Below, piece after piece: positions 3,483-38,745 of a stretch of DNA of 64,000 bases. A program made the position numbers and the translations under genes. Source of the DNA: an uncultured Syntrophobacteraceae bacterium. Its GTDB lineage: Bacteria > Desulfobacterota > Binatia > UBA9968. The stretch's first letter is position 1; each line of letters starts with the position of its first letter. The notes under the pieces are model-generated. The model was not told the DNA's origin, did no database searches, and saw nothing but the letters and a program-made list of their open reading frames with translations. The stretch covers positions 38,886-102,885 of the forward strand of contig CAYOJC010000002.1 of assembly GCA_964404195.1 (NCBI GenBank), in the 5' to 3' direction.

Positions 3483-4910
3483 TCACTTCGCCAAATCGGC
3501 AGCCCATTTCCGTTCGACAGCGCGCCTCATCTCTTCGCCGAAACGGTTGACTATCGGGAACCGCTCGCGCCAGGAAAACGGCCGGCAGGCCGTCAGTACC
3601 GCGCGAGAACTGTTCGGTTGCCCGGCCAGATCCTTTTTCTCGGGGGCAATCAGAGGATCCAGAATCGTGCTGCGGCAGTTACGCACAATCTCGACGGCAT
3701 CCTGGGGCTCGCAGCGCGTCGCCAATGCCCACAGCACTTCCTGCTCGTTTGTCGGGTCGATATCGCTGTCGACGACGATCACGAAGCGCCCCAATCCGCC
3801 GAGGGAGATGGCCTTGGAGGCGACGTCCCTCGCGTGCCCCTCATACTGCTGGTCGATCGCGATCACCGTGATCATGCCGGAGACTCCCGCGGGAAGGATC
3901 CACACGGAGTGCAGTCCCGGCATTTCCGTCTCTTCGAGGCGTTTCCATAATTGGGCGGTCTGCAGATAATCGCGCAGCCGCTCCCCCGTGGGCGGGCGCA
4001 TCGGCGGCGCGCCCAACATCACCGGATCGTCGCGCCACATGATTTTCTTCACGTTGATGACCGGCCCTTTTTCATCCGACCACGTGTAGTATCCGGTGAA
4101 TTCGCCGAAGGGCGCCTCGGCGTGGCTCTTTTGATCTTTAGGAGGACATTCGCCTTCGATCACGATCTCGGCTTCAGCCGGGAAAGGAAGACCGGTACGG
4201 GAGCCGCGCAAGACCATCAAAGACTCGCCCGCCAATCCGCCGGCCATCTCGAGCTCGGAGACTCCCTGAGCCCACTTCATGCATCCCGAAGCCCAGATCA
4301 AAGGATGCTCGCCCGCGACGACGATCATCGGACAGGCCTGGCCTTTGCTCCAATACTTCTTGCAGATCGTGCTCCCGTTATTGCCGGGCGCCATGTATAA
4401 ACCGCCCAAATTTCGCTCGTGGACCTGGACGCGATAAGGCGCGGCGTTGATCGCCCCGGTCTCGGGATCGCGCACGATCACCAGATCTCCGGTCCCTATG
4501 TAGCGTCCGCCGTCGTGCTCGTGCCATTTCGGAGACGGGAAGCGGAACAGATCGATGTCGCTTCCCTCGGCGACATTTTCGAGAACCGGACCGGACTTCA
4601 CTTCCGTGAGCGGCATCGGCTTGATGGCCCGCAGCTTGTCCTTGAGTTGACGCACGAGCTCCAGAGGAGCCGCGTGCTCATCGACGCCGAGGGTGAAAGC
4701 GAAGCGGCGGTCGGTCACCAGCGCGTTCGTAAGAACACGGTGGCCCTTGGGATAACCGGAAATTTCATCGAAGAGCAGCGCGGGCCCTTTGCGCTCGGCG
4801 AAGAGTTCCGTGAGCACGCCGATCTCGAGGTCCCAATCCGCCCCGGCCAGCTTCTTGAGCTCGCCTCGTTCGTCAACCGCCTCGATCCACTTTCTGAAAT
4901 CAAAACTCAT
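3483..4910 (-). CDS. UbiD-family decarboxylase
   Basis: 475 aa, MSFDFRKWIEAVDERGELKK...GEFTGYY, with the characteristic UbiD/3-octaprenyl-4-hydroxybenzoate carboxy-lyase fold signature along the full length. Confidence 0.9.
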   Translation of the reverse strand: MSFDFRKWIEAVDERGELKKLAGADWDLEIGVLTELFAERKGPALLFDEISGYPKGHRVLTNALVTDRRFAFTLGVDEHAAPLELVRQLKDKLRAIKPMPLTEVKSGPVLENVAEGSDIDLFRFPSPKWHEHDGGRYIGTGDLVIVRDPETGAINAAPYRVQVHERNLGGLYMAPGNNGSTICKKYWSKGQACPMIVVAGEHPLIWASGCMKWAQGVSELEMAGGLAGESLMVLRGSRTGLPFPAEAEIVIEGECPPKDQKSHAEAPFGEFTGYYTWSDEKGPVINVKKIMWRDDPVMLGAPPMRPPTGERLRDYLQTAQLWKRLEETEMPGLHSVWILPAGVSGMITVIAIDQQYEGHARDVASKAISLGGLGRFVIVVDSDIDPTNEQEVLWALATRCEPQDAVEIVRNCRSTILDPLIAPEKKDLAGQPNSSRAVLTACRPFSWRERFPIVNRFGEEMRRAVERKWAADLAK

Positions 4911-4934: not shown

Positions 4935-6071
4935 TTATTTTCCTCGCCACGCCTTAGCTATAGCCTCGGTCCATGCCTTGCCTTCCTCTGTTTCGCTCAT
5001 CCATTTGAGTTTCTTAAGACTCTCTTCATTGTCCACGTAGCTCACCATCTTCACTTTGTTGGTTTTCATCCTCTCCATCATCTCTCGTCCGATCTTGGAG
5101 CTCTTTAGATACAGGTGGGGCTGCGAAGTCGCCTTTTCGAAAACTCCCTGCCCTTCCTCGCTCAATGTCCACAGGACAAAGAGCGTCGCCGCGTTGGGAT
5201 GGCGGGCGCCCTCGCGCACGAAATACATCGCTTCGTTGATGGTCGTATAGTCGCGGAAAAATTCCAAACCGATCGGAGCGCGCGCATCCCTCTCCTTGAA
5301 CTCGTGATAGTAGTGGGCATTGGCATCGACGAACTTGAATTCGCCCAGGAGCATCCGGTTGACGGCGGCCGACTCGCGCTCGGTCGCCGCACTGTTTCTT
5401 CCCATGCCTCGGACGATCTCGAGCGCCTGATCCTTGTCGTAGGCCAACAGCGAGGCGTCGGCGTCCGAGGTCCAGGGCGGAAGCGCATACGTCCCTTTGA
5501 ATCTGGCCTCCCCCAAATCTTTATGGGTCTTCGGAAGGTCCTTGGCGGATATCAGCTTGGTGTTGTAAATGATCGCTTTCAGCCAGTGACCGAACGTAAA
5601 CACGCGGCCTTTGAAAGGACCGGGACTTACTTTATCGATGACGGGCAGCGCCTGGGGAGCGATCTCGCTCAAGACCGCTTCTAAATTGTCGATCCGCTTG
5701 ACGCCGTTGACCTCCAGGAGATGGATGATTTCATGGGCGCCGCCGAACTGCACGTCGTAGGTGGGGACGATCCCCTGTTTGGTTTCGCCGATCGCCTGGC
5801 TGATCTTCTGAAACGAGGCGCCCGAAGCATCGACCTTGAGCTCGATCTCCACGCCCAAACGCTTGAGATAATTCCTGAAGCCGGCGGTGACTTCATCGCT
5901 GCCGCTGGTCGTTGGATACAAGTAAACCTGTTTTTCTTTGCGAGCCCCTTCGACGAGCTGATTAAAAGCGGCCTTACCCGGGGAAGGCGCCGATGCAGCT
6001 CCGGCAGATGACGGAGTCTGGCTGATCAAAATCGATAACCCGACTAAAACAGCGGCTTTGAGCGTTTTCAT
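4935..6071 (-). CDS. ABC transporter substrate-binding protein (Fe3+/thiamine/polyamine SBP family), paralog 0
   Basis: Trimmed to MKTLKAAVLVGLSILISQTPSSAGA, which has a signal peptide with GGAGG 5 nt upstream. The rest is about 40-50% identical to the three SBPs at 13015-17717. Confidence 0.85.
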   Translation of the reverse strand: MKTLKAAVLVGLSILISQTPSSAGAASAPSPGKAAFNQLVEGARKEKQVYLYPTTSGSDEVTAGFRNYLKRLGVEIELKVDASGASFQKISQAIGETKQGIVPTYDVQFGGAHEIIHLLEVNGVKRIDNLEAVLSEIAPQALPVIDKVSPGPFKGRVFTFGHWLKAIIYNTKLISAKDLPKTHKDLGEARFKGTYALPPWTSDADASLLAYDKDQALEIVRGMGRNSAATERESAAVNRMLLGEFKFVDANAHYYHEFKERDARAPIGLEFFRDYTTINEAMYFVREGARHPNAATLFVLWTLSEEGQGVFEKATSQPHLYLKSSKIGREMMERMKTNKVKMVSYVDNEESLKKLKWMSETEEGKAWTEAIAKAWRGK

Positions 6072-6106
6072 ATTCCCTCCAATTACGATTCCACGCAGTC
6101 GCGCGA

Positions 6107-6571
6107 TCACTTGGAATTCTTGCTGGTCTCCACGACGGCCTGGACGATTTTTCGATAGCCCGTACAACGGCACAGATTGCCGGCCAGGTACCATCTGACC
6201 TCTTTCTCGCTGGGATGCGGTATCTTGTGAAGCAACGCTTTAGCCATCAGGATCATTCCCGAAGTGCAGTACCCGCACTGCGCCGCATCGTAGCGGGCAA
6301 AATTTTCCTGGAGGGGATCCAGCGGCCCGTCGGCCGCCAACCCCTCGATGGTAACGATTCGCTTCCCCTGGCATTTTGCCAACGGGGTCATGCATGAGTA
6401 GCGGGCCTCGCCGTCGATCAAAACCGTGCAGGCGCCGCAACCGCCGTGATCGCACCCTCGCTTCGCGCCCAAAAGATGCAGTCGGTCACGCAGCGCAGTC
6501 AGCAGCGGCTCCGACAATTCCGCCGACACGCTCTGCTCTTCGCCGTTTACGTCGAGCGAAATCTCAACCAT
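6107..6571 (-). CDS. molybdenum hydroxylase small subunit, (2Fe-2S)-binding (CoxS/XdhC-like)
   Basis: Two Cys clusters (CDHGGCGACTV and CGYCTSGM...CRCTGY). Start MVEISLDVNG lies 4 nt after the FAD-subunit stop, indicating translational coupling. Confidence 0.9.
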   Translation of the reverse strand: MVEISLDVNGEEQSVSAELSEPLLTALRDRLHLLGAKRGCDHGGCGACTVLIDGEARYSCMTPLAKCQGKRIVTIEGLAADGPLDPLQENFARYDAAQCGYCTSGMILMAKALLHKIPHPSEKEVRWYLAGNLCRCTGYRKIVQAVVETSKNSK

Positions 6572-22407: not shown

Positions 22408-22533
22408 CTATTCCTTTCCTTGCTGCCGACCTGGGCAGGCTCTTTCGTGCTCACGAAGCTCGCTTTCCGATTTAAAGGTCTTGCCGCACGAGCTACACTT
22501 TAGCTGATCCTCTTGGGGATTCTCCTTTGCCAT
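22408..22533 (-). CDS. 41-aa C2HC zinc-finger/zinc-ribbon small protein
   Basis: MAKENPQEDQLKCSSCGKTFKSESELREHERACPGRQQGKE, with AGGAGGTGA 6 nt upstream of the ATG. The upstream part of track ORF 22408-22653 lacks a Shine-Dalgarno. Confidence 0.45.
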   Translation of the reverse strand: MAKENPQEDQLKCSSCGKTFKSESELREHERACPGRQQGKE

Positions 22534-22609
22534 GCTATTCACCTCCTTTCCTGATGAATTGAATTTAGACGTTTCAGGTTTCATGAACGAGTAAGACGGC
22601 CCCATATCT

Positions 22610-23074
22610 TCAATATGGTTTCTCACCGTAAAAGGAATGAATCTCAGATCCATACTTACGGTCGGCCAGATTCGGCCAATTATTATTATCGAAGCCCGGA
22701 GCCATTTTGAGTCGCTCTTTAGCCACGTTAAGTACTAAGACATCCTTGTCACGATCCATTCTCAAAGCTTTCCAAGGCACGGCAAAGAGCTTATCACCCA
22801 TTCCCAAAAAGCCTCCGAAAGAAACGACCGCATAAGCGATGCGGGCTTGTTCTGGATCGATCACAAGTTCTTTGATTTCCCCCAGATTCTCTCCTTCGGG
22901 ATTCTTTACATTTTTGCCGATTAAATTACTGGCCTTTAATACGCCAGGTTCTTTTCCGCTAGATAAGTTTTGTTGCTTTGCTTTCTTCTCCTGTCCACCA
23001 CCAGGTCCAACTGTCACAAGAGAGCTAAAACCCAGCATCAAAATCAATGCCAGTATTTTCCCCATATTTTTCAT
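22610..23074 (-). CDS. PRC-barrel domain protein, secreted
   Basis: Signal peptide MKNMGKILALILMLGFSSLVTVG and AGGAGG 5 nt upstream. PRC-barrel block GKNVKNPEGENLGEIKELVIDPEQARIAYAVVSFGGFLGMGDKLFAVPW. Confidence 0.65.
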   Translation of the reverse strand: MKNMGKILALILMLGFSSLVTVGPGGGQEKKAKQQNLSSGKEPGVLKASNLIGKNVKNPEGENLGEIKELVIDPEQARIAYAVVSFGGFLGMGDKLFAVPWKALRMDRDKDVLVLNVAKERLKMAPGFDNNNWPNLADRKYGSEIHSFYGEKPY

Positions 23075-23517
23075 AAAATCCTCCTTTAAGGCTGACCAAA
23101 ATAGAATTCGGACTTGCATTTACCGGGTGCTCGCATCGGGTGGCGCTCGTTGGTGGTTATTCCTTTGGATATCCTCCATCACGAGTTGTTAGAGCAATGC
23201 TTATGCCAAAAGGTGTTTATCTGTACCTTTGCATTTTCATCCTTCCCTTCTATCGGGCTACTTTCGACGGGATATATATTTGACCGATCCGCAAAGGATG
23301 CGCCAACGAGAAGCTTGACTGACAAAATACCAGCCTTCACTTCTTCATTGCCTCTGCAGGCTTCATCTTTTTCTCTGATATCTTTGTTGTCGCTCGCGTA
23401 AAGATAAGGAGCGCGACCGGTTTGTTGCAAAATTTGTATCGCCAAGGAGACAAGCGTATCGATGGTTGGACAATTTGGCGGGGATACGAAAAGGCGATGC
23501 GCCGCTTGGTTCGTGCA

Positions 23518-23715
23518 CTAAAAAAGATTGAAAATGCCGACGCGCGGTGTCCGGATATATAAACAGAGGAGACTGGCTAACGCTTTAGGAAGAATTACAA
23601 GCGGGAGTAAGTAAGCAGGAGCTCGAGCGGCAATCCGCGCCAGAAAAAGGAGTACCAAGGAAAACATGCCAAACGATGAATCAATGAGTGTTACGACGTT
23701 AATGAGGGCACGCAT
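23518..23715 (-). CDS. hypothetical 65-aa two-TM membrane peptide
   Basis: MRALINVVTLIDSSFGMFSLVLLFLARIAARAPAYLLPLVILPKALASLLCLYIRTPRVGIFNLF, with AAGGTG 6 nt upstream. AT-rich codons and no homology recognised. Confidence 0.3.
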   Translation of the reverse strand: MRALINVVTLIDSSFGMFSLVLLFLARIAARAPAYLLPLVILPKALASLLCLYIRTPRVGIFNLF

Positions 23716-23826
23716 AAGTGACACCTTGCGATGATCGAAACGACAACAGAAATGGTAGGTTGCAACTGTTCCGCGCAGGACAAAGTATATTCTGCACCTG
23801 GTTGCACGAATAGGTGAATTCCCTTA

Positions 23827-23855
23827 TTGACAACTACCATATCTCTTAGTAAAAA
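23827..23855 (+). promoter_or_regulatory. candidate sigma-70 promoter for the kinase gene (TTGACA-N17-TAAAAA)
   Basis: Perfect -35 hexamer TTGACA at 23827-23832 and a weak -10 at 23850-23855, about 30 nt upstream of the ATG at 23885. Confidence 0.3.
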
Positions 23856-23884
23856 GTGTCTTTGCTGACGGAGGAAATGGAGAG

Positions 23885-26689
23885 ATGAAACACGGAACCA
23901 TGGAGCGGAAAATTCAGGTCGCACAGCATCGCCTGGAATCTTTGTGGCAACGTATCCAGAAATCGCCCGAACCACAGAAAGAGTTATTTGCGGAGACCCT
24001 TCAAGAACTCGGCCTAGCTCTCGAAGAACTACAACTATCCCAAGAGGAGTTGCGCCAGCGGAACAAAGAACTGGCCAGCACATCCCAGGCGTTGGCTAGA
24101 GAGCGACAGCATTATACCGAGTTGTCGGACCACGCCCCGGACGGCTACTTGGTGACAGACCCCGAGGGAGTCATCCGCGAGGCTAATCGCGCCGCAGGGG
24201 CCCTGCTCCAGGTGCGCCACAAGTTTCTCATCGGCAAACCACTCTCCCTCTATGTCGCCGCAGAACAGCGCAAGGACCTTTGTGACCTGCTGACCCGCTT
24301 GTCCCAGAAAAAGGAAAAGGAAGTAAGGGAGTGGGGGATGCTTATGGCGCCGCGTGAAGGCCCGCCCTTCCCTGCCGCGGTGACTATCACTACGATCCAC
24401 GACGGTCAATCCGATTGGTCTTCTGAATCCTTAACGGGCTCATTGATCGGCCTGCGCTGGCTTGTACGTGACATCACAAATCGTGTCGTTCAGACAGAGA
24501 ACGTGCGGCGCCAGAGCGAGGAGCAATTCCGCTTGCTAGTAGAGGGATTCAAAGACTATGCCATCTTCATGTTAGATCCCGAGGGAGTTATCGTCAGTTG
24601 GAACACGGGGGCGGAACGGATCAAGGGTTATCGGCCAGAAGAAATCCTTGGCAAGCACTTTTCCTGTTTTTATTCCCCGCAAGACATGGAGCTCGGCAAG
24701 CCCCAACGAGGCCTAGAGGCAGCTGCCGCCGAAGGCCGGTTTGCAGATGAGGGCTGGCGTTTACGCAAGGACGGATCCCTTTTCTGGGCCAGCGTCGTCA
24801 TAACGGCATTGCGAGACGAGTCGGGAAGCCTACGCGGCTTCTCAAAAGTCACGCGCGATATCACAGAGCGGAAGAATACCGAGGATAAATTGCGTAGGCA
24901 AGCAGAGCTTTTGGATCTGGTCCATGATGCGATCATCGTAAGAGACCTGGAGAACAGGGTTGTCTTTTGGAACTCCGCCGCGCAGCAAACCTACGGCTGG
25001 ACAGCTGATGAAGCGCTGGGGAAAGAGGTTCACATTTTACTCCAAACAGTATTCCCTCAGCCTTTAGAAATCATCAAGGCTACAGTTCTTCGAAATGGAA
25101 GTTGGGAAGGTGAAGTGATCCACACCCGACGCGACGGCGAACGTATCGTCGTGGAAAGCTGTTGGGTATTGCAGAAGAGCCGAGATGGCTTCCCGATAGC
25201 GATTCTAACCATCAATAGGGATATCTCCGATCGTAAGCGGGCCGAGAAACAAATTCGAGAGAATCTCCACCGCATCACCGCCCTGCGTGATATCAACGTT
25301 GCCATTACGTCAACTCTGGATCTGCAATCGGTGCTGAGCCTTTTGCTGGAGAAACTCGAAGACTTTTTTCCCTATCCGACAGCGATGACGGTCAGGTTAT
25401 TCAACCGGGAAACCGGCGAGCTGGAGCGTTTATTCTGCCGGAATATCGACCCGGCGGAATGGAAAGCCGGCGCACAAAGCTCACCCGGCGGTCGGGACCA
25501 AGAGGCGATCCGGATTAAGGCTCCTGTGGTCGTCCGTAATGTTCAACTCGACCCGCGCTCCCACAGACCCGACTTCTACAGCCGCATGGGCCTGGTATCT
25601 TCTCTTGCCGTTCTGTTGAGCGTTAAGGAAGACGTCCGGGGAATCCTGTCCTTATACACCCGGGAGGAACACGAATTCAGTGGAGAAGAAATCGAGTTCC
25701 TTTCTTCCCTGGCAGTTCAGGCGGCCATAGCCATTCACAACACCCGGCTCTACGAGCAGCTCATAAAACAGGCGGTCGAACTGGAGAGAGCCCACGACGA
25801 GTTGGAAGAGCGAGTGCGTGAGCGAACGTTTGAGCTGGCCAGGACAAACGACGCTCTCAAGACCGAGATCTCGGAACGCAAGCGGGTCGAGGAGCAACTG
25901 CGCGAGAGCGAGCGTCAATTGAGCAATCTCGCCAAAGGTTTGGAGCAGCAGCTCATCGCCTCGGACCGGCTGGTTTCGGTCGGCGAGCTGGCGGCGTCGA
26001 TCGCCCATGAATTCAACAACCCGCTGCAGATCATCCTGGGCTTTACACAGGAGGTTCTCAGTGAGCTGAACCCCGCTCAACCTCACTACGAAATCTTAAA
26101 GATTGTTGAGACGGCAACCCACCGATGCGGGGAGATTATTAGAAATCTCTTGGATTTTGCCCGTCCGGACCATGATCTATCATTGTCGGTGGTTGAACCT
26201 ATCATCCGGAACAGTATTAAATTAACTCTCGCCCACCTGGAGAAGTCAAAAATCAAAGTCGAGATCGATGCCCAGCCTGATCTACCCGAGATTTACGCAA
26301 ACCCTACCCAACTGCAACAGGTGTTGATAAATCTCTTTTTTAACGCCGCAGATGCAATGCCCAAAGGCGGGACGCTGACTATTCGGGCGGCGGCTAATCC
26401 TGCGTCCTCGGTCCAGGCTGATGAAAACCGCGAGGCAAGTCGCCAGGAGTTGACTATTGCGGTGTCTGATACGGGCACGGGTATACATCGCGAGGCGCTG
26501 CCTAACATCTTCCGCCCTTTCTTCACTACGAAGAAAAAGAAAGGTATGGGGCTGGGACTATCAATCTGCGAACGGATCATGAAGTCCCATGGCGGCAGAG
26601 TCACCGTGGACAGCGCGCGGGGGAAAGGCACCACCTTCTATCTTCATTTCCCTATGATGGAGGCAAGAGACTATGGACGAGCCTCATGA
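23885..26689 (+). CDS. cytoplasmic multi-PAS/GAF sensor histidine kinase
   Basis: 934 aa with no TM segments. It has three PAS-like blocks, a GAF-like region and a coiled coil, then HisKA (SIAHEFNNPL, His present) and HATPase_c (N, DTGTGI, GMGLGL boxes). Confidence 0.9.
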   Translation: MKHGTMERKIQVAQHRLESLWQRIQKSPEPQKELFAETLQELGLALEELQLSQEELRQRNKELASTSQALARERQHYTELSDHAPDGYLVTDPEGVIREANRAAGALLQVRHKFLIGKPLSLYVAAEQRKDLCDLLTRLSQKKEKEVREWGMLMAPREGPPFPAAVTITTIHDGQSDWSSESLTGSLIGLRWLVRDITNRVVQTENVRRQSEEQFRLLVEGFKDYAIFMLDPEGVIVSWNTGAERIKGYRPEEILGKHFSCFYSPQDMELGKPQRGLEAAAAEGRFADEGWRLRKDGSLFWASVVITALRDESGSLRGFSKVTRDITERKNTEDKLRRQAELLDLVHDAIIVRDLENRVVFWNSAAQQTYGWTADEALGKEVHILLQTVFPQPLEIIKATVLRNGSWEGEVIHTRRDGERIVVESCWVLQKSRDGFPIAILTINRDISDRKRAEKQIRENLHRITALRDINVAITSTLDLQSVLSLLLEKLEDFFPYPTAMTVRLFNRETGELERLFCRNIDPAEWKAGAQSSPGGRDQEAIRIKAPVVVRNVQLDPRSHRPDFYSRMGLVSSLAVLLSVKEDVRGILSLYTREEHEFSGEEIEFLSSLAVQAAIAIHNTRLYEQLIKQAVELERAHDELEERVRERTFELARTNDALKTEISERKRVEEQLRESERQLSNLAKGLEQQLIASDRLVSVGELAASIAHEFNNPLQIILGFTQEVLSELNPAQPHYEILKIVETATHRCGEIIRNLLDFARPDHDLSLSVVEPIIRNSIKLTLAHLEKSKIKVEIDAQPDLPEIYANPTQLQQVLINLFFNAADAMPKGGTLTIRAAANPASSVQADENREASRQELTIAVSDTGTGIHREALPNIFRPFFTTKKKKGMGLGLSICERIMKSHGGRVTVDSARGKGTTFYLHFPMMEARDYGRAS

Positions 26690-28034
26690 ACGGATCCTCA
26701 TCGTAGACGATGAACAGAACGTCCTGGCCCTTTTTAGGAGGATCCTGCAAAAGGAGGGGTACGAGGTTGAGTGCGCCTCCTCCGGCGAAAACGCGCTGAA
26801 GAAGCTGGAGGCGGAATGGTTCGACTTGGTTATCACGGATTTGAAGATGCCGGGGATGGACGGGTTGGAGTTGTTGAAAAAGGGGAAGGCGGCGAACCCG
26901 GGCATGTCATTTATCATGCTAACGGCTTTCGGAACAATTCATTCGGCCGTGACAGCTATGAAGGAAGGAGCCTATGATTACCTTATCAAACCCATCGATA
27001 CTGAAGAACTCAAGATCGTGGTGCAAAAAGCCCTGGAGCTGCATCGGCTTACCCGCGAGTTGGAGCGCCTGCGAAGCCAACTGGATCTCGATCCGGACTT
27101 TCAACAAATCGTCGGCCATAGCGAGCCGATGCGGGGCGTTTTCCGCCTGATCAAGATGGTGGCCAACAGCAATGCCACGGTTCTCGTTCAAGGGGAATCT
27201 GGCACGGGTAAGGAACTGATAGCCAGAGCCCTGCACTACCACAGCCAAAGGAATAATCGGCCCTTTGTCGCTATCAATTGCGCCGCTCTGCCGGAGACCT
27301 TACTCGAGAGCGAGCTTTTCGGGCATGTGCGCGGCGCCTTTACAGGGGCCATCTGCAATAAAAAGGGCCTCTTTGAGGAAGCTCATGAGGGAACGCTCCT
27401 GCTCGACGAAATCGGAGATACCACCACGGCCTTTCAGTCCAAACTATTGAGAGTCCTCCAAGAGAATGAAATTCGGCCGTTGGGGAGCAATAAGAGTATC
27501 AATATCGACGTCAGGGTAATCGTCGCAACGAATAAGGATCTCAAGAACCAGGTGGAGAGGCAGGCTTTCCGTGCGGATCTCTTCTACCGCCTTAACGTAG
27601 TGCCGATCGTTATCCCGCCTCTGAGAAATCGAAGAGAGGACATACCACTTTTAGTCAACCACCTCATCAGTAAACACTGTAAGCGGAATCGGCTGGAGCC
27701 GAAAGGAATCTCCCCAAACGCTCTAAGACTCTTGCTAGATCATTCTTGGCCTGGAAATGTGAGAGAGCTGGAGAACGTCATCGAGCGCGCCGTGCTGATC
27801 AATCCAGGTCCTGAGATTAATACCGATTCCCTGTTCACTAGTCCGGTCGCAGTAGACGAATCTCCGATATCCCTGCGTCAGGCAACGAACGGGGCTAGGG
27901 AAATCGTAGAGAGGGAAAAAATTGCCCACGCATTAGAAAGGGCAAAAGGTAATCGATCCGAAGCTGCAAAGCTGCTAGGTATTAGCCGATCCGCGCTCTA
28001 TAATAAGCTTAGGGTCCTAGACCTCGCTCACTGA
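26673..28034 (+). CDS. sigma-54-dependent response regulator (NtrC/Fis family)
   Basis: REC domain (DDEQN...D...K), an AAA+ sigma-54 activator domain with Walker A GESGTGKE and GAFTGA, and a C-terminal Fis-type HTH. It overlaps the kinase gene by 17 nt. Confidence 0.9.
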   Translation: MDEPHERILIVDDEQNVLALFRRILQKEGYEVECASSGENALKKLEAEWFDLVITDLKMPGMDGLELLKKGKAANPGMSFIMLTAFGTIHSAVTAMKEGAYDYLIKPIDTEELKIVVQKALELHRLTRELERLRSQLDLDPDFQQIVGHSEPMRGVFRLIKMVANSNATVLVQGESGTGKELIARALHYHSQRNNRPFVAINCAALPETLLESELFGHVRGAFTGAICNKKGLFEEAHEGTLLLDEIGDTTTAFQSKLLRVLQENEIRPLGSNKSINIDVRVIVATNKDLKNQVERQAFRADLFYRLNVVPIVIPPLRNRREDIPLLVNHLISKHCKRNRLEPKGISPNALRLLLDHSWPGNVRELENVIERAVLINPGPEINTDSLFTSPVAVDESPISLRQATNGAREIVEREKIAHALERAKGNRSEAAKLLGISRSALYNKLRVLDLAH

Positions 28035-28055
28035 TCGACCGACCTGGAACGCGGC

Positions 28056-28080
28056 TGTCTATTCCGGTAGACACTGTCCA
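28056..28080. promoter_or_regulatory. candidate enhancer/UAS: overlapping palindromes TGTCTA-N6-TAGACA and GACA-N1-TGTC
   Basis: ctGTCtattccggtaGACactGTCca lies about 85-110 bp upstream of the sigma-54 -24/-12 element, the usual position for bEBP binding sites. Confidence 0.45.
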
Positions 28081-28165
28081 CAGCAACACACATTCAAGGG
28101 AATTGCCGGCCTAGTTTTATCCTATAGTTCTGCTCCTATCGGGCATTCAAAACATATTTTTTTGG

Positions 28166-28180
28166 TGGCATAGGAATTGC
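28166..28180 (+). promoter_or_regulatory. sigma-54 (RpoN) promoter, TGGCAT-N5-TTGC
   Basis: tggcataggaattgc has GG (-24) and GC (-12) with exact consensus spacing, 38 nt upstream of the ATG at 28219 and 111 nt upstream of the alternative ATG at 28291. Confidence 0.7.
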
Positions 28181-28218
28181 GCTACTAACTCAAGGAGCGC
28201 ATTAGCCGTAAGAGGCCA

Positions 28219-28506
28219 ATGCCTTGGAAGTTTCTTGGAGAGCAGGCCGCTCAACCCGAGCCAGAGGGCTCAGAAGGAGGAAAATCCAAAATGGCGAACC
28301 TTGTGATAGCGACCTGCCGTAGATGTGGAAAAGAAATTAACCTAAGAAGCGTCATGACCTACAGGGTCCTGCAAGATTATCGAATAGTCTGTAAGGAGTG
28401 TACAAGAGTAGTAGAAACTCCTTTGATTGACTCAGAAAGGAAAAGAAACACGACCACCGGTTCGAATAAGAAAGAGGGACCGCAAAGCGAGACAGAAAGA
28501 TTATAA
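28219..28506 (+). CDS. small zinc-ribbon protein (CxxC...CxxC); alternative start at 28291
   Basis: Core MANLVIATCRRCGKEINLRSVMTYRVLQDYRIVCKECTRV with GAAGGAGG 10 nt before 28291. The acidic N-terminal extension starting at 28219 has AAGAGG 4 nt upstream. Confidence 0.55.
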   Translation: MPWKFLGEQAAQPEPEGSEGGKSKMANLVIATCRRCGKEINLRSVMTYRVLQDYRIVCKECTRVVETPLIDSERKRNTTTGSNKKEGPQSETERL

Positions 28507-28625
28507 CCTTACCTTGAGTGAGGACTAGAAAACCCCCGTGAATATGAGGGTGCGGGTTTTTGGGAGGAGCGGCGGTAGGAAGCCTCGCGACAGGAGGAGC
28601 ATACGAATATAACGCCAATCGACAG

Positions 28626-28724
28626 ATGGATATGCTTGAGGAGAATCTTAGAAACGACAGAATATCACGTCAAGAATATGAATCACGGAAAAAGCAAATA
28701 GAGACTGGCTCTATCATTTATTAG
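28626..28724 (+). CDS. possible SHOCT-like small ORF (about 32 aa; TTG start at 28560 would give 54 aa)
   Basis: MLEENLRNDRISRQEYESRKKQIETGSIIY resembles the SHOCT short C-terminal motif (L..L...G.I...EY...K). Not in the ORF track. Confidence 0.25.
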   Translation: MDMLEENLRNDRISRQEYESRKKQIETGSIIY

Positions 28725-28824
28725 CGGTCCCCCATCCCGGAGGATTTGTAATAAAGAGAACCGCTAACCCAGAGGCAGATAATTGACTATGTAACAGATG
28801 AACAAGACGATGGAGGACAACCCT

Positions 28825-29391
28825 ATGAACCAAGAAATATTTGCGGGCCAGTGGAAGCAAATGCGCGGCGTGGTGAAATCGTGGTGGGGCAAACTTGCCG
28901 ATGATGACTTCGACAAGATCGGGGGGCAGAAAGACAAACTGATCGGCTTGATACAAGAGAAATACGGATCTACTCGCGATCAGGCCCAGCAAGAGGTTGA
29001 GCTGCGCTTAAAAGAATATAGCGACAAAATGGCCAGTCGCAGCGGCAGCGGAATACCGGAGCCAAGTGAAACTGTCGGCAGCATGACGGCCAAGGCACAG
29101 GAGGTCGGCGCGACTGCTGGACGCAAGGCCAGCGAGGCTGCAATAGTCGTTGGTGAGAAGATAGGATCGCTGGCGAGCGTGATTCGGAAAAATGCTCCGC
29201 ACGAAGGCGCGATCGCCAGAGCTGCAACAGCAGTAGCGGGTGGGCTGGAATCGGCGAGCTCTTATTTACAAGAAAAAAAATTCGCAGAGCTGGCAAAAGA
29301 CCTAACCTCCTTGGTTCGCAGCTACCCCGTCCAATCGATTTTGGTCGGGGTCGGCCTTGGCTATTTATTGGCGCGAAGCACGAAACGGTAA
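28825..29391 (+). CDS. CsbD-like general stress domain fused to DUF883 (YqjD/ElaB-type) membrane-anchored protein
   Basis: N-terminus AGQWKQMRGVVKSWWGKLADDDFDKIGGQKDKLIGLIQEKYG is CsbD-like. C-terminus SYPVQSILVGVGLGYLLARSTKR is a DUF883-type anchor. GGAGGA lies 7 nt before the ATG at 28825. Confidence 0.65.
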   Translation: MNQEIFAGQWKQMRGVVKSWWGKLADDDFDKIGGQKDKLIGLIQEKYGSTRDQAQQEVELRLKEYSDKMASRSGSGIPEPSETVGSMTAKAQEVGATAGRKASEAAIVVGEKIGSLASVIRKNAPHEGAIARAATAVAGGLESASSYLQEKKFAELAKDLTSLVRSYPVQSILVGVGLGYLLARSTKR

Positions 29392-29405
29392 CCCACCGGT
29401 AACGC

Positions 29406-29765
29406 ATGGACAACAAGTCGCAACACGCCTCTGAGCCGAGCATAGTAGCTCTGCTTGGAGGCATTATTAACGATGCCAAGAGTTTGCTGGCACTAGGAAT
29501 GGCGCTGGGAAAGCTAGAAGTGCAGGACCAACTGCGCAAAGGCAAAACCGCCGCGATAACACTGGGCATCGCGATAGGGATTGTCGCGGTCGGTGGACTG
29601 TTGCTGATGCACATGCTTGTCCAGGCGCTGGCGGCATTCACGGAGATTCCACTCTGGGGGTGCTTCGGCATAGTTGGAACCGCGCTTGTCGCTATCGGCG
29701 GGGTGCTGCTCGCCATCGGCAAAACCAAAGCAGAGGAACTCGACGTGGTGCCCCAACAACGGTAG
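29406..29765 (+). CDS. YqjE-like (DUF1469 / holin-X superfamily) inner-membrane protein
   Basis: 119 aa with two TM helices (AAITLGIAIGIVAVGGLLLMHMLV, WGCFGIVGTALVAIGGVLLAIG). It has the classic position between two DUF883 genes, as in yqjD-yqjE. Confidence 0.6.
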   Translation: MDNKSQHASEPSIVALLGGIINDAKSLLALGMALGKLEVQDQLRKGKTAAITLGIAIGIVAVGGLLLMHMLVQALAAFTEIPLWGCFGIVGTALVAIGGVLLAIGKTKAEELDVVPQQR

Positions 29766-29787
29766 AGACAATGAAGGAGAATGCGCA

Positions 29788-30324
29788 ATGGCTCGCAAGG
29801 CGGACGACATCCGACAAGACATAAAAGGCACCCGCCAAGACATCCACGACACCCGTTTGGCAATGACGGAGAAGCTAGAAATGATGGAAGAGCGTGCACG
29901 GCAGACCATTGAAGGCGTACAATCATCGGTGGAAGATATCGTGCAGAAAGTGAAAGGGACGGTGGACACGACCGTCGAAGGGGTGAAGCGTAACTTTGAT
30001 CTACGCTATCAAGTGGACCGGCATCCGTGGCTAGTGTTTGGCGGGTCACTCGTCGTGGGCTATATGCTCGGAAGCCGGCGTGGCGGCCGAATGTCTTCTT
30101 CTTTCTCCACAAATGGTGCAGCGTTCTCTCTCAAAATCATAGTCGTTGGCGCTGTGATGAGCACGCTGCGGGAAATGCTCAAGCGGGCCCTGCTGGCGCC
30201 AGCCGCACAAGTCAATAACGCAATGACCAAGCCGGGGCGTCAGCCCATCGATAGGCCGGAGCAGAATCCGGCACCAATTTCCAGTTCAAAAGTAAAAGGA
30301 CAACCAATTCGGATAGAGCCTTGA
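29788..30324 (+). CDS. DUF883 (YqjD/ElaB/YgaM-like) ribosome- and membrane-associated stress protein
   Basis: Start MARKADDIRQDI with AAGGAGA 7 nt upstream. Coiled-coil N-terminus and a DRHPWLVFGGSLVVGYMLGSRRGG anchor motif. Confidence 0.6.
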   Translation: MARKADDIRQDIKGTRQDIHDTRLAMTEKLEMMEERARQTIEGVQSSVEDIVQKVKGTVDTTVEGVKRNFDLRYQVDRHPWLVFGGSLVVGYMLGSRRGGRMSSSFSTNGAAFSLKIIVVGAVMSTLREMLKRALLAPAAQVNNAMTKPGRQPIDRPEQNPAPISSSKVKGQPIRIEP

Positions 30325-30440
30325 GGGTGAAAACCTCTCGCGGGTGAAGCAGACAGAGAATCAAAAACGTTACCGGTTGGTTCGACGACTCTTAGGAAGG
30401 CGAAAGCTTTCTCGAACCCGAGACGCGTGGAAGGAGAGTT

Positions 30441-30551
30441 ATGCAGTTTTTTAAAGAAGAGAAAGGTAAGATCGGTTGGATCCTGCTATGGGCGATAGGA
30501 GTGCCCATACCTGTGTTAGTCGTTTTCTTTCTGTTGCGTGGTTGCACGTAA
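30441..30551 (+). CDS. 36-aa single-TM small protein
   Basis: MQFFKEEKGKIGWILLWAIGVPIPVLVVFFLLRGCT with GGAAGGAGAG directly upstream. Not in the ORF track. Confidence 0.4.
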   Translation: MQFFKEEKGKIGWILLWAIGVPIPVLVVFFLLRGCT

Positions 30552-30601
30552 CGGAAACGATTGGCCTTAGTTAAAAGAAAGCCAGATAGAAGGAGGTACG
30601 T

Positions 30602-30910
30602 ATGCGGCAGGTATTAAAGTCTTTTGTAGTTATGGTGTTGATTCTCTCGCTCGCTGGCTGCCAAGCTATGACAGGCAGAACCGCCGGGCAGAACATTGAT
30701 GATGCCGCCATTACGGCTTCAGTGAAGTCAAAACTTGCGGCGGATAAGATTTCGAGTCTCACACGGGTGGACGTCGATACCACCAGCGGCACCGTTTACC
30801 TAAACGGTGTAGTCGAATCTGCTGATCAGAAGGCACGGGCCGGGCAACTCGCATCGCAGGCAAGCGGCGTCAATAACGTAGTCAATAACCTTCAAGTCCA
30901 AAAAAAATAG
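30602..30910 (+). CDS. BON-domain lipoprotein (OsmY-like)
   Basis: Lipobox LSLAGC and BON pattern AAITASVKSKLAADKISSLTRVDVDTTSGTVYLNGVVESADQKARAGQLASQASGV. GAAGGAGG is upstream. Confidence 0.75.
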   Translation: MRQVLKSFVVMVLILSLAGCQAMTGRTAGQNIDDAAITASVKSKLAADKISSLTRVDVDTTSGTVYLNGVVESADQKARAGQLASQASGVNNVVNNLQVQKK

Positions 30911-30971
30911 CACGACTTCAGTTAATTTTTGGGCCAGCAGGCTACTGGCATTTTTCGTTAAGTGGTACGGC

Positions 30972-30977
30972 TTATAA
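30972..30977 (+). promoter_or_regulatory. candidate -10 box (TATAAT) upstream of the catalase gene
   Basis: Perfect TATAAT about 66 nt upstream of the katE ATG, with no convincing -35. This is compatible with an RpoS-type promoter but unproven. Confidence 0.25.
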
Positions 30978-31043
30978 TGTTAGCCCAAAATGCACAGAGA
31001 CTCTCGCTTGAGACCCACAATAAGTTAGAAAAAGAGGATTTCA

Positions 31044-36923: not shown

Positions 36924-37160
36924 CTTATTCTCCTATGTTATTTGGCAATCGAAGCATCCCAACGATATCCCAGTTTGTCTCGGTGAACAAACCGGCGGCC
37001 CGTATGCAACTCCTAACTGACACAGAGCCCGCCGGGACTCGTTCATTTGAAAGTGCCCCGAGAAGCTGCTAGACATGCCGTAGACATTTCGTGGAGATGG
37101 AGTTCTCCGTTTAACCGCCCACAGGCTGATAACGCCTACTTTCATTCCGGAGGTAGAGTT

Positions 37161-38324
37161 ATGGAACAGCTCTGGTGGGACGCCTCAGTCTGGATCGCTC
37201 TCGCCCTGATATCCAGCCTAGTTTCTCTCCGAATCGGTATCTCCGCCGCTCTTGTCGAGCTGATCGTAGGAATACTTGCCGGGAACTCTTTTCATCTGCA
37301 AGTTTCCGAGTGGATTAATTTCCTCGCCAGTTTTGGCGCTATCATCCTCACGTTTCTCGCCGGCGCCGAGCTTGAAAGCCAGACCTTAAAAAGATTTTGG
37401 AAAGAAAGCCTCGTTCTTGGAATCATAGGTTTCTTTGCCCCGTTCGCTTTGTCATGGGCGGCAGCTCAGTTTCTCCTCGGTTGGGATCTCAGAGCATCCC
37501 AAATCGCTGGAATCGCCATGTCCACGACATCGGTCGCGGTGGTCTACGCCGTCATGGTGGAGACCGGGCTTAACGAGACTGCCATTGGGAAGCTGATCCT
37601 GGCCGCCTGCTTTGTGGACGATCTTGGAACCGTGATTGCCCTCGGGCTGCTCTTTACCAGCTTCGGAGTTTGGTTCTGGATCTTTATTGTTGTAACGGTT
37701 CTTGCGCTTCTACTTCTGCCGAAAATTACGCCCTTCTACCTTAAGCGAGTCAACGCGCATTCGAGCGAACCCGAGGTCAAGTACATCTATCTTGTCCTTC
37801 TCGTTCTCGCGTATTTGGCCGTGCGGGGCGGCAGCGAGGGCGTGTTGCCGGCCTATCTGGTCGGCATGGTGCTAGCCGACACCTTCCTCGCAAACAAAGA
37901 ACTCATCAGGCGAATGCGCGCGACCACGTTCGCCTTGCTCACGCCGTTCTACTTTCTCAAGGCCGGAAGCCTGGTGGATGTGAGAGCCGTGCTCACAGCT
38001 TTTGGCTTAGTCATCGTGTTCTTCTCGGCGAAGAGCCTGGCGAAATTTTTCGGTCTGTACCCGGCAGGGGTATGGTTCCGATTCACCACAAAGATCAATC
38101 TATATATCACGCTGATGATGAGCACGGGTCTTACGTTTGGAACTATTTCCGCCCTTTACGGGTTCACGCACGGAATCATCAACCGGGACCAGTACTCCAT
38201 CTTAGTCGTTGTTGTTATCTTAACCGCCATTATTCCGACACTCATAGCTCAGACCTTCTTCGAGCCCAAAGGAAAAGAACGCGAGGCTTTGTTTACGGAA
38301 AAAGGAGGAAAAGAAAATGTTTAA
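37161..38324 (+). CDS. cation:proton antiporter (CPA2/Kef-type membrane domain)
   Basis: Start MEQLWWDASVWIALALISS with GGAGG 7 nt upstream. About 12 TM helices and a Na+/H+-exchanger-family pattern. Confidence 0.8.
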   Translation: MEQLWWDASVWIALALISSLVSLRIGISAALVELIVGILAGNSFHLQVSEWINFLASFGAIILTFLAGAELESQTLKRFWKESLVLGIIGFFAPFALSWAAAQFLLGWDLRASQIAGIAMSTTSVAVVYAVMVETGLNETAIGKLILAACFVDDLGTVIALGLLFTSFGVWFWIFIVVTVLALLLLPKITPFYLKRVNAHSSEPEVKYIYLVLLVLAYLAVRGGSEGVLPAYLVGMVLADTFLANKELIRRMRATTFALLTPFYFLKAGSLVDVRAVLTAFGLVIVFFSAKSLAKFFGLYPAGVWFRFTTKINLYITLMMSTGLTFGTISALYGFTHGIINRDQYSILVVVVILTAIIPTLIAQTFFEPKGKEREALFTEKGGKENV

Positions 38325-38745
38325 GAAAATACTGCTGGCCTACGATGGGTCTGAAGGCGCCAAGCTCGCTTTGACCAAAGTTGCGGAGATGGCCAAGACT
38401 GCGGCGGCCGAGCTTCATCTTCTGGCAGTCGGCAGAATCCCGGAATATGCGGAGACGGTGAGTGAGGTGGAAGAGGCGAGAGAGCAGGCTAAGGGATTTT
38501 ATTCAAAGATTATGGAAGAAGCCGCTGCAAGCTTGCGGCAAAGAGGTCTTTCTTCAACGGTCCATATAGACTATGGCAAGCCCGCCGATGTTATTCTAAG
38601 GATTGCAGAGGAGTGGGGCGCTGATCTCATCGCAATCGGGACAAACCCTCACTCCGCTCTGAGGAGACGAGTTCTCGGCGCCACTGTAGACAAAGTCGTA
38701 GACCACGCGCACTGCTCCGTATTGGTTGTGAGAGACGGCAGTTGA
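38317..38745 (+). CDS. universal stress protein (UspA family)
   Basis: 142 aa, MFKKILLAYDGSEGAKLAL...GTNPHSALRRRVLGATVDKVVDHAHCSVLVV. It overlaps the antiporter gene by 8 nt. Confidence 0.9.
   Translation: MFKKILLAYDGSEGAKLALTKVAEMAKTAAAELHLLAVGRIPEYAETVSEVEEAREQAKGFYSKIMEEAAASLRQRGLSSTVHIDYGKPADVILRIAEEWGADLIAIGTNPHSALRRRVLGATVDKVVDHAHCSVLVVRDGS

Follow-up and report, generated by a model that had tools for sequence, protein, structure and literature searches.

We describe here a predicted regulatory circuit in a 64,000-nucleotide stretch of DNA (64 kb, GC content 57%; hereafter the window) from an uncultured Syntrophobacteraceae bacterium. Between positions 23885 and 28506, the window probably carries a self-contained sigma-54 circuit, consisting of a cytoplasmic sensor kinase, an NtrC-type activator, an enhancer, a -24/-12 promoter and the gene of a small zinc-ribbon protein. 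Such a circuit had been proposed from a sequence-only reading of this DNA, and comparison with relatives now sustains it, as the same parts recur in the same order and with the same spacing across 12 lineages. The kinase-activator pair is a real but ordinary NtrC-type system, an uncharacterised member of a textbook class. Judged by conservation, the conserved output of the orthologous systems is the zinc-ribbon protein and not the general-stress genes that are its neighbours in the window. The parts of the circuit are as follows.

23885-26689, plus strand: cytoplasmic sensor histidine kinase, 934 aa (Pfam domains)
26673-28034, plus strand: NtrC-family response regulator and sigma-54 activator, 453 aa (Pfam and motifs)
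28056-28073, no strand: predicted enhancer (upstream activating sequence, UAS) site 1, a perfect palindrome TGTCTA-N6-TAGACA, TGTCTAttccggTAGACA (sequence and conservation)
28075-28092, no strand: predicted enhancer (UAS) site 2, degenerate, TGTCCAcagcaaCAcACA (2 mismatches to the consensus)
28166-28181, plus strand: predicted sigma-54 promoter, TGGCATAGGAATTGCG (GG of -25/-24 at 28167-28168, GC of -13/-12 at 28179-28180)
28291-28506, plus strand: zinc-ribbon protein, 71 aa, C9-x2-C12 ... C34-x2-C37 (ribosome-binding site GGAGG at 28277-28281)

Predicted enhancer, promoter and target gene in twelve lineages

The comparison covered 12 non-redundant lineages whose activators are 64-98% identical to that of the window. 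The first lineage comprises the window together with loci L161 and L162 (activator 98% identical); L081 follows at 79%, then L164, L165/L166, L167/L168, L169 and L170/L171 at 73-75%, and finally L172, L173, L002, L001 and L174 at 64-69%. A thirteenth locus, L163 (75% identical), stands outside the 12 lineages. Near-identical contigs are present in the JGI samples 3300044465 and 3300044785. Promoters were scored in bits with a home-made sigma-54 weight matrix, with shuffled windows as the null, and 155 loci around non-orthologous activators (identity of 52% or less, 1.45 Mb in total) served as the control set for the enhancer. The domain sets, the predicted cis-elements with their spacing and the target gene are all evident from the sequence and its conservation.

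The -24/-12 element TGGCAT-N5-TTGC reported earlier is present at 28166-28180 (core TGGCATaggaaTTGC). Its GG and GC are exactly 10 nt apart, and it departs from a TGGCAC-N5-TTGCW-like context only once, at the last and least-conserved position. The predicted promoter (28166-28181) is intergenic, points to the zinc-ribbon gene, lies 110 nt before ATG 28291 and scores 14.0, the second best match in the window; transcription would start at about 28192. A promoter of 10-17 bits is found in 12 of the 12 lineages, 19-185 nt before the start codon of the first target gene.

Upstream of this element, the palindrome TGTCTA-N6-TAGACA that had been noticed after the regulator's stop is indeed there, at 28056-28073; it begins 21 nt past the activator stop codon and 110 bp before the T of TGGCAT. 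A second palindrome, GACA-N1-TGTC, had been described as overlapping it, and this proves to be merely the junction of the tandem sites 28056-28073 and 28075-28092. What the sequence predicts instead is a tandem pair of 18-bp sites at a spacing of 19 bp, the second of them 91 bp before TGGCAT, a pattern that is classical for two NtrC-type dimers.

All 12 lineages have at least one site that deviates from TGTCYA-N6-TRGACA by no more than one mismatch and lies upstream of the promoter, ahead of the first target gene. In 10 of the 12, such a site starts between 107 and 129 bp ahead of the T of TGGCAY, and L081 and L167 have a single site of that quality at 153-158 bp. Six lineages (the window, L081, L165, L169, L170 and L164) have a second site at 90-93 bp; in L002, L173, L001 and L174 the second site is found instead 66-68 bp farther upstream. 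Sites with one mismatch or none are confined to the target-upstream region within each 5- to 13-kb locus. Exact sites number 13 in the 192 kb of orthologous loci as against 4 in the 1.45 Mb of non-orthologous ones, a 24-fold difference. Counting 6-mers in the 12 upstream regions without reference to any motif led to the same sequence: TGTCTA/TAGACA, present in 11 of 12 regions, ranked first, and TGTCCA/TGGACA, present in 10 of 12, shared second place, while in 300 shuffles the best 6-mer was present in 8 regions at most. Among the closest relatives, L161 and L162, both sites and the -24/-12 element are unchanged, and the flanking intergenic DNA and the 5' untranslated region (UTR) carry substitutions.

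A natural rearrangement is informative in this respect. In L164 the activator gene is followed by an inserted glycosyltransferase gene, and both enhancer sites (at 9701 and 9722) as well as the promoter (at 9813) adjoin the nucleotidyltransferase operon, 2.3 kb from the activator gene. As all three have remained next to their target operon, the cis-module belongs to the target rather than to the activator gene's 3' end.

These comparisons bear on the possibility that there is no dedicated circuit at all, the palindrome being an operon terminator or a chance occurrence and the -24/-12 element a chance match. In favour of it, the short distance of the palindrome from the stop codon is the usual one for a terminator, and both motifs occur at chance frequency within the window alone: TGTC-N10-GACA is found once, with about one expected, and shuffled windows give about 1.3 matches of at least 14 bits, compared with two (16.3 and 14.0) in the real window. 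The significance of the motifs thus comes from the comparison with relatives and not from the statistics of the window. On the other hand, a terminator was considered and rejected, as the RNA fold has z = +1.1 against shuffles and the U-run is absent. Furthermore, the half-site sequence is conserved beyond what pairing would require, the sites are in tandem and keep a fixed distance to a promoter that is itself conserved, and those of L164 stand far from the activator gene, ahead of the target operon. We therefore consider this explanation very improbable.

Other observations, like the chance frequencies just given, weigh against the proposed circuit. Site 2 is degenerate, with its 2 mismatches. 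L163 has neither an enhancer nor a promoter downstream of the activator, so the arrangement is not universal. The gene rpoN is not in the window. No IHF consensus (WATCARNNNNTTR, one mismatch allowed) is present between enhancer and promoter, so that DNA bending would have to be intrinsic or come from another protein; a T7 run directly upstream of -24 may, speculatively, contribute intrinsic curvature. Lastly, the output protein has no function assignable by Pfam, NCBIfam, HMMER or AF2/Foldseek.

The gene with two CxxC motifs that had been placed behind the promoter is present and ends at 28506. Its start is to be revised: it is ATG 28291 and not ATG 28219, because the latter reads ATT in L161 and L162. 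In L162, JGI places the start of the gene at the position equivalent to 28291, and all zinc-ribbon homologues start 5-8 residues ahead of the first CxxC. With the predicted transcription start, the 5' UTR would be about 100 nt long. A conserved small RNA behind the promoter was also tried as a candidate and rejected; the 5' UTRs (19-185 nt) are unrelated, and Rfam gave no match at E ≤0.1 in the 20-36 kb region.

In the 73-75% group, the enhancer and promoter are followed, in this order, by the genes of a ManC-like nucleotidyltransferase, a protein of 134-144 aa and a zinc-ribbon protein of 50-65 aa. The first, of about 323 aa, resembles the N-terminal part of ManC (TIGR01479, E 8e-36, below the cut-off), and the second, the 135-aa partner protein, matched no NCBIfam family. 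The zinc-ribbon proteins share the pattern C-C-K-C-G-K-E-I...Y-[RK]-V...Y-R-[IL]-[IV]-C-x-D-C, and the protein of the window is homologous to them (tblastn E 1e-9 to 3e-6; alignment). A homologue was found in L164, L165/L166 and L167/L168, where it is encoded by the last or second-last gene of the operon; none was found in L169 and L170/L171, though the first two operon genes are present there. The window lacks the nucleotidyltransferase and 135-aa genes, so the zinc-ribbon gene is alone and directly behind the promoter. Other cargo follows the equivalent promoter in the 64-69% group: CBS, NMD3-like, Hsp20, P-type ATPase, Usp and hibernation factor genes in L002 and L173, and a small protein with a nucleotidyltransferase in L172. 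In L174 (7687-12597) and L001 (from 3602), both from Nitrospiria, a secreted multicopper-oxidase-like protein of about 1636 aa replaces the zinc-ribbon operon.

The zinc-ribbon protein itself has few recognisable homologues. It has only sub-threshold matches in Pfam (TFIIB ribbon, DUF6510, DksA/TraR) and none among the NCBIfam families. A word-indexed homologue search returned one near-identical protein, and an exhaustive HMMER search gave 8 matches at E ≤0.001, four of which are 50-64-aa homologues. Its AF2 model has a pLDDT of 67, and a Foldseek search of this model against PDB gave nothing at E ≤0.001 and only generic treble-clef, PHD and LIM fingers beyond that.

The kinase-activator pair and its known counterparts

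The soluble kinase with three PAS domains and a GAF domain that had been proposed is borne out by Pfam and hydropathy. An N-terminal coiled-coil-like region is followed by three PAS domains, GAF (478-618), HisKA (700-763) and HATPase_c (806-924) (Pfam), and no transmembrane segment was found, as the Kyte-Doolittle 19-residue mean peaks at 1.46. The protein thus has both parts that mark a HisKA-type kinase, HATPase_c and a HisKA domain with its H-box, HEFNNPL, in which H708 is the predicted phospho-acceptor. The sensor region is the least conserved part of the orthologous kinases, which contain from about 1 to about 5 PAS and from 0 to 2 GAF domains. Because their number varies so freely, the earlier guess of a 'redox- or light-type' PAS sensor lacks support.

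The kinase and activator genes overlap by 17 nt, as had been noted, and the overlap is identical in L163, L164, L167 and L169. The activator has the three parts of an NtrC-type enhancer-binding protein: a receiver with its Asp (Response_reg 8-117, E 3e-32, with D56 within ...LVITDLKMP), an AAA+ domain (Sigma54_activat 146-312, E 6e-71, and AAA_lid_14; Walker A GESGTGKE, ESELFGH, and GAFTGA at residue 221, as also reported before) and a C-terminal Fis-type HTH_8 (409-447, E 1e-14; all domains by Pfam). It is the sole sigma-54 activator gene in the window. Its best PDB matches are the Aquifex NtrC1 structures 4l4u and 1ny5 (E about 1e-100), and it remains below all NCBIfam equivalog cut-offs (AtoC, NtrC, ZraR, GlrR, NtrX, LuxO, FlbD, FlgR and others); for ZraR, for example, it scores 435 with a cut-off of 760. 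Relatives of the activator form 217 protein clusters at E ≤1e-150, the best 120 of which are 62-98% identical. They come from metagenome-assembled genomes of Nitrospirota, Binatia, 'Deltaproteobacteria' and similar lineages, and the closest named ones belong to Binatia (75%) and Nitrospirota (64-68%).

Some relatives differ from the window in what surrounds the pair. Genes for CheB and a CheR-PAS fusion precede it in L164, L167, L169, L170 and L171. MotA/MotB-like genes are near it in the 73-75% relatives (on the downstream side in L165, L166 and L167), and L165/L166 also have flagellin and FliS. These chemosensory and motility neighbours, which are absent from the window, hint at a control link in those relatives. 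In the 64-69% subgroup, the activator gene is preceded by an additional gene for a REC-only protein and by that of a short PAS kinase, and this REC/kinase/activator operon has its own, very strong predicted sigma-54 promoter (14-18 bits; L001 176-191, L002 4211-4226, L172 4335, L173 4205, L174 4274). No TGTCYA-N6-TRGACA sites within 1 mismatch accompany these promoters, which suggests a cascade, or autoregulation via weaker sites.

Among characterized systems, GlrK/GlrR (QseE/QseF) of Enterobacteriaceae invites the closest comparison. GlrR shares with the window activator the REC, AAA+ and HTH_8 domains and the D56 phospho-acceptor. Its experimentally defined consensus is TGTC-N10-GACA, with three such sites upstream of the sigma-54 promoters of glmY and glmZ (PMC3045617). 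The predicted site TGTCYA-N6-TRGACA is a subset of this class, and the GlrR sites likewise occur in several copies, >100 bp upstream of a -24/-12 promoter (PMC3045617). The promoter-proximal site of E. coli glmY (TGTCTCTTTTTAGCGACA) starts 107 bp before TGGCAC, compared with 110 bp for the window site, and in both systems the target adjoins the regulator genes. Since the predicted site falls in the TGTC-N10-GACA class, the system would work like GlrK/GlrR or NtrB/NtrC. Yet the inner half-site positions, YA/TR, are specific to the activator group of the window and differ from the GlrR sites, and, unlike in the GlrK/GlrR system, the IHF consensus is absent from the loop region. GlrK is a membrane kinase working with the lipoprotein QseG, whereas the window kinase is soluble and carries PAS and GAF domains. 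The targets glmY and glmZ are small RNAs, whereas the output is a small protein in the window and a nucleotidyltransferase operon in relatives. Neither a QseG-like gene nor an Rfam match was present in the 20-36 kb region, so the glmY-glrK-qseG-glrR context is not reproduced there. The activator and E. coli GlrR share only 45% identity, which makes GlrR no nearer a relative than other members of the NtrC family, and the activator scores 428 bits with the NCBIfam GlrR model (NF011695; cut-off 763).

NtrB/NtrC at glnAp2 is the paradigm of enhancer-dependent sigma-54 activation. Both this system and that of the window have a kinase-activator gene pair, a GAFTGA-containing AAA+ domain and dimer sites in tandem, spaced by about two turns of the helix and located roughly 100-140 bp ahead of the promoter. 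However, the NtrC consensus, TGCACC-N5-GGTGCA, is unlike the window site sequence, the activator scores 437 with TIGR01818 ntrC (cut-off 559), and there is no nitrogen-metabolism context in the window. AtoS/AtoC give the highest NCBIfam scores for both window proteins (AtoC 496, AtoS 278 bits), and some relatives of the activator carry an automatic AtoC label from JGI. Nevertheless, the equivalog cut-offs (714 and 646 bits, respectively) are not reached, no ato genes are nearby, and the sensor region is unrelated. In view of the 45% identity, the sub-cut-off NCBIfam scores and the differences in kinase type, context and target, the activator is not an orthologue of GlrR or NtrC.

Stress-type genes and the second predicted sigma-54 promoter

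Downstream of the zinc-ribbon gene lies a group of stress-type genes, arranged as follows.

28524-28562, plus strand: hairpin between an A-run and a U-run, candidate weak terminator, directly 3' of the zinc-ribbon gene
28560-30910, plus strand: tightly packed stress-type genes (Pfam, NCBIfam)
28560-28724, plus strand: 54-aa Gly-rich, Gly-zipper-like open reading frame (ORF) with a SHOCT-like tail and a TTG start, 96% conserved in L162
28798-29391, plus strand: CsbD fusion (Pfam/NCBIfam)
29406-29765, plus strand: YqjE/holin-X-like membrane protein (Pfam/NCBIfam)
about 29785-30324, plus strand: DUF883-like protein (Pfam/NCBIfam)
30441-30551, plus strand: 36-aa hydrophobic membrane peptide, MQFFKEEKGKIGWILLWAIGVPIPVLVVFFLLRGCT (ribosome-binding site GGAGAG)
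30602-30910, plus strand: BON protein (Pfam/NCBIfam)
30933-30949, plus strand: terminator-like hairpin GCCAGcaggctaCTGGC followed by a T-run, after the BON gene

Genes for an HPII-type catalase and then a ferritin-like protein lie downstream of the BON gene. The sequence-only reading had placed all the genes from CsbD to catalase under sigma-54 as a general-stress regulon, an arrangement that it called unusual. Neither part of this claim finds support. As detailed below, no relative shows linkage of these genes to the system, one hairpin follows the zinc-ribbon gene and another one separates the catalase. In addition, sigma-54 control of stress genes has a precedent outside model organisms: the operon next to DVU3305, a two-component sigma-54 activator of D. 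vulgaris, is classed under 'general stress response', and other activators were assigned to envelope and nitrite stress (PMC4641369). The likeness of DVU3305 to the window system is one of published assignment, and DVU3305 has GAFSGA where the window activator has GAFTGA (PMC4641369).

A wider version of the same idea would have a sigma-54 transcript running through 28560-30910, perhaps as far as the catalase, and would make the kinase-activator pair a general-stress master switch. The stress genes are co-oriented and close, with gaps of 54, 74 and 14 nt, one overlap, and small ORFs within a 278-nt gap. A terminator scan of the plus strand found nothing in the gaps between them before the hairpin at 30933-30949, the sole match before 30933 being at 29342-29363, inside the CsbD gene, and the gaps contain no standout sigma-70-like promoter either. 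Because of this tight packing and the lack of terminator matches in the gaps, read-through to the BON gene is possible. The stress-type cargo behind the equivalent promoter of L002 and L173 (CBS, Hsp20, Usp and hibernation factor) and the assignment of DVU3305 to general stress are also in line with such an operon.

Several observations speak against it. No homologues of the CsbD, YqjE-like, DUF883-like, BON, catalase or PRC-barrel proteins were found by tblastn in the other 174 activator loci, and weight-matrix and motif scans revealed no further sigma-54 sites or enhancers ahead of the stress genes. The hairpin at 28524-28562 has a folding energy of -9.8 kcal/mol (z -1.4) and is more stable in L162 (-13.7 kcal/mol, z -1.7), although it is not significant in a wider fold. 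In relatives that have it, the zinc-ribbon gene is at or next to the end of its operon. The catalase is probably a separate transcription unit, as it is preceded by the terminator-like hairpin at 30933-30949 and by a perfect TATAAT (30973-30978), 66 nt before its start. With linkage and extra sites lacking, and with hairpins and the TATAAT intervening, the stress island appears to be a lineage-specific neighbour of the circuit. We regard its dependence on sigma-54 as possible but less likely than not, and the same holds for the master-switch version. Farther away, 9 kb downstream, is more stress-type cargo: the genes of a Na+/H+ exchanger and a Usp share 8 nt (37047-38745), and no sigma-54 site precedes them.

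On the other side of the kinase gene, the window contains its best match to the sigma-54 weight matrix.

23208-23193, minus strand: second predicted sigma-54 promoter, TGGCATAAGCATTGCT (weight matrix 16.3, the best in the window)
22610-23119, minus strand: PRC-barrel gene encoding a secreted protein, behind TGGCATAAGCATTGCT, with a small C2H2-type zinc-finger ORF and a DUF2231 gene also there

It is conceivable that the activator drives this divergent promoter as well, with the PRC-barrel, C2H2 zinc-finger and DUF2231 genes behind it, so that its operon would stand between two targets of its own. The high score, the position about 75-120 nt before the PRC-barrel start and the presence of only one activator gene in 64 kb favour this, as do two weak TGT-N12-ACA motifs farther upstream, at 23435 and 23548. 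However, these motifs have 2-3 mismatches and are 227-357 bp from the promoter, compared with roughly 90-197 bp in 11 of 12 relatives; no TGTCYA-N6-TRGACA site with fewer than 2 mismatches, and no other strong palindrome, is present upstream. Moreover, a 62%-identical PRC-barrel gene on an unrelated GC-rich contig (L176) has the top sigma-54 match of its locus (TGGCACGTCGAATGCA, 3899-3914, 16.2 bits) 87 nt before its start codon, and that locus has neither a TGTCYA-type enhancer nor a nearby activator gene. PRC-barrel promoters thus probably answer to a different activator, and we think it unlikely that the divergent promoter is a target of this one. PRC-barrel genes carry predicted sigma-54 promoters in two unrelated genomes and may be recurrent sigma-54 targets in their own right.

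The surroundings of this promoter hold a few further features. The small ORF at 22408-22653 (minus strand) has a eukaryote-style C2H2 signature, CSSCGKTFKSESELREHERAC (Pfam zf-C2H2, E 5.5e-5, just below the cut-off), and is kept in L161; as it is downstream of the PRC-barrel gene, it may share the predicted sigma-54 transcript. Between the PRC-barrel and kinase genes, 765 bp (23120-23884) contain no convincing gene, though JGI calls two small minus-strand ORFs in L161. This stretch has no Rfam matches and no promoter for the kinase operon could be identified in it; a weaker sigma-54-like site (10.8 bits) lies within it at 23305-23290. Elsewhere in the window, another weaker sigma-54-like site, TGGCTAAAGCGTTGCT (6231-6246, minus strand, 11.1 bits), is found 37 nt upstream of a solute-binding-protein gene (4935-6194, minus strand), and it could be one more sigma-54 promoter or match by chance.

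A model of the circuit and its meaning

Judging by the domain families, the soluble multi-PAS/GAF kinase would sense a cytoplasmic signal, autophosphorylate at H708 and pass the phosphate on to D56 of the activator. Dimers of the phosphorylated activator are expected to bind the adjacent palindromes at 28056-28092, where phosphorylation, as in the NtrC family, would drive their oligomerisation on the tandem sites into an AAA+ ring. This ring would then meet the sigma-54 RNA polymerase at 28166-28181 via DNA looping, and its GAFTGA loops, powered by ATP hydrolysis, would open the promoter. The transcript from near 28192 would carry the gene of the zinc-ribbon protein (28291-28506, 71 aa). The counterparts of this enhancer and promoter in relatives would serve the operon of the ManC-like nucleotidyltransferase, the 135-aa protein and the zinc-ribbon protein. 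Some read-through into the CsbD-to-BON genes is possible in the window, outside the conserved design.

The variety of cargo invites a bolder proposal, which at present we consider rather unlikely. In it, the whole activator orthogroup would be a sigma-54-based stress and dormancy switch with a lineage-swapped cargo and a regulatory zinc-ribbon protein. The cargo may then be the CBS, Hsp20, Usp and hibernation factor genes in L002 and L173, the ManC-like and zinc-ribbon genes in the Binatia-like lineages, and the zinc-ribbon gene with the CsbD-to-BON genes in the window. The zinc-ribbon protein would, for example, bind RNA polymerase or a sigma factor and relay the signal to the adjacent stress genes. 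Members of the orthogroup are common in Nitrospirota, Binatia and allied lineages of soil and groundwater, which are not known to have RpoS or SigB.

As the mechanism itself is a textbook one, the circuit opens no long-standing question. Its analysis corrects an attractive but unsupported inference, that of sigma-54 control over general-stress genes. It also turns a guess made on a single genome into a testable regulon prediction for a large group of sigma-54 activators that is still uncharacterised and belongs to uncultured bacteria of soil and groundwater. For this group, the comparison provides a predicted binding consensus, TGTCYA-N6-TRGACA, and a positional rule that places one site about 110 bp and the other about 91 bp upstream of -24, together with a conserved target operon and, as its output, a conserved tiny zinc-ribbon protein.

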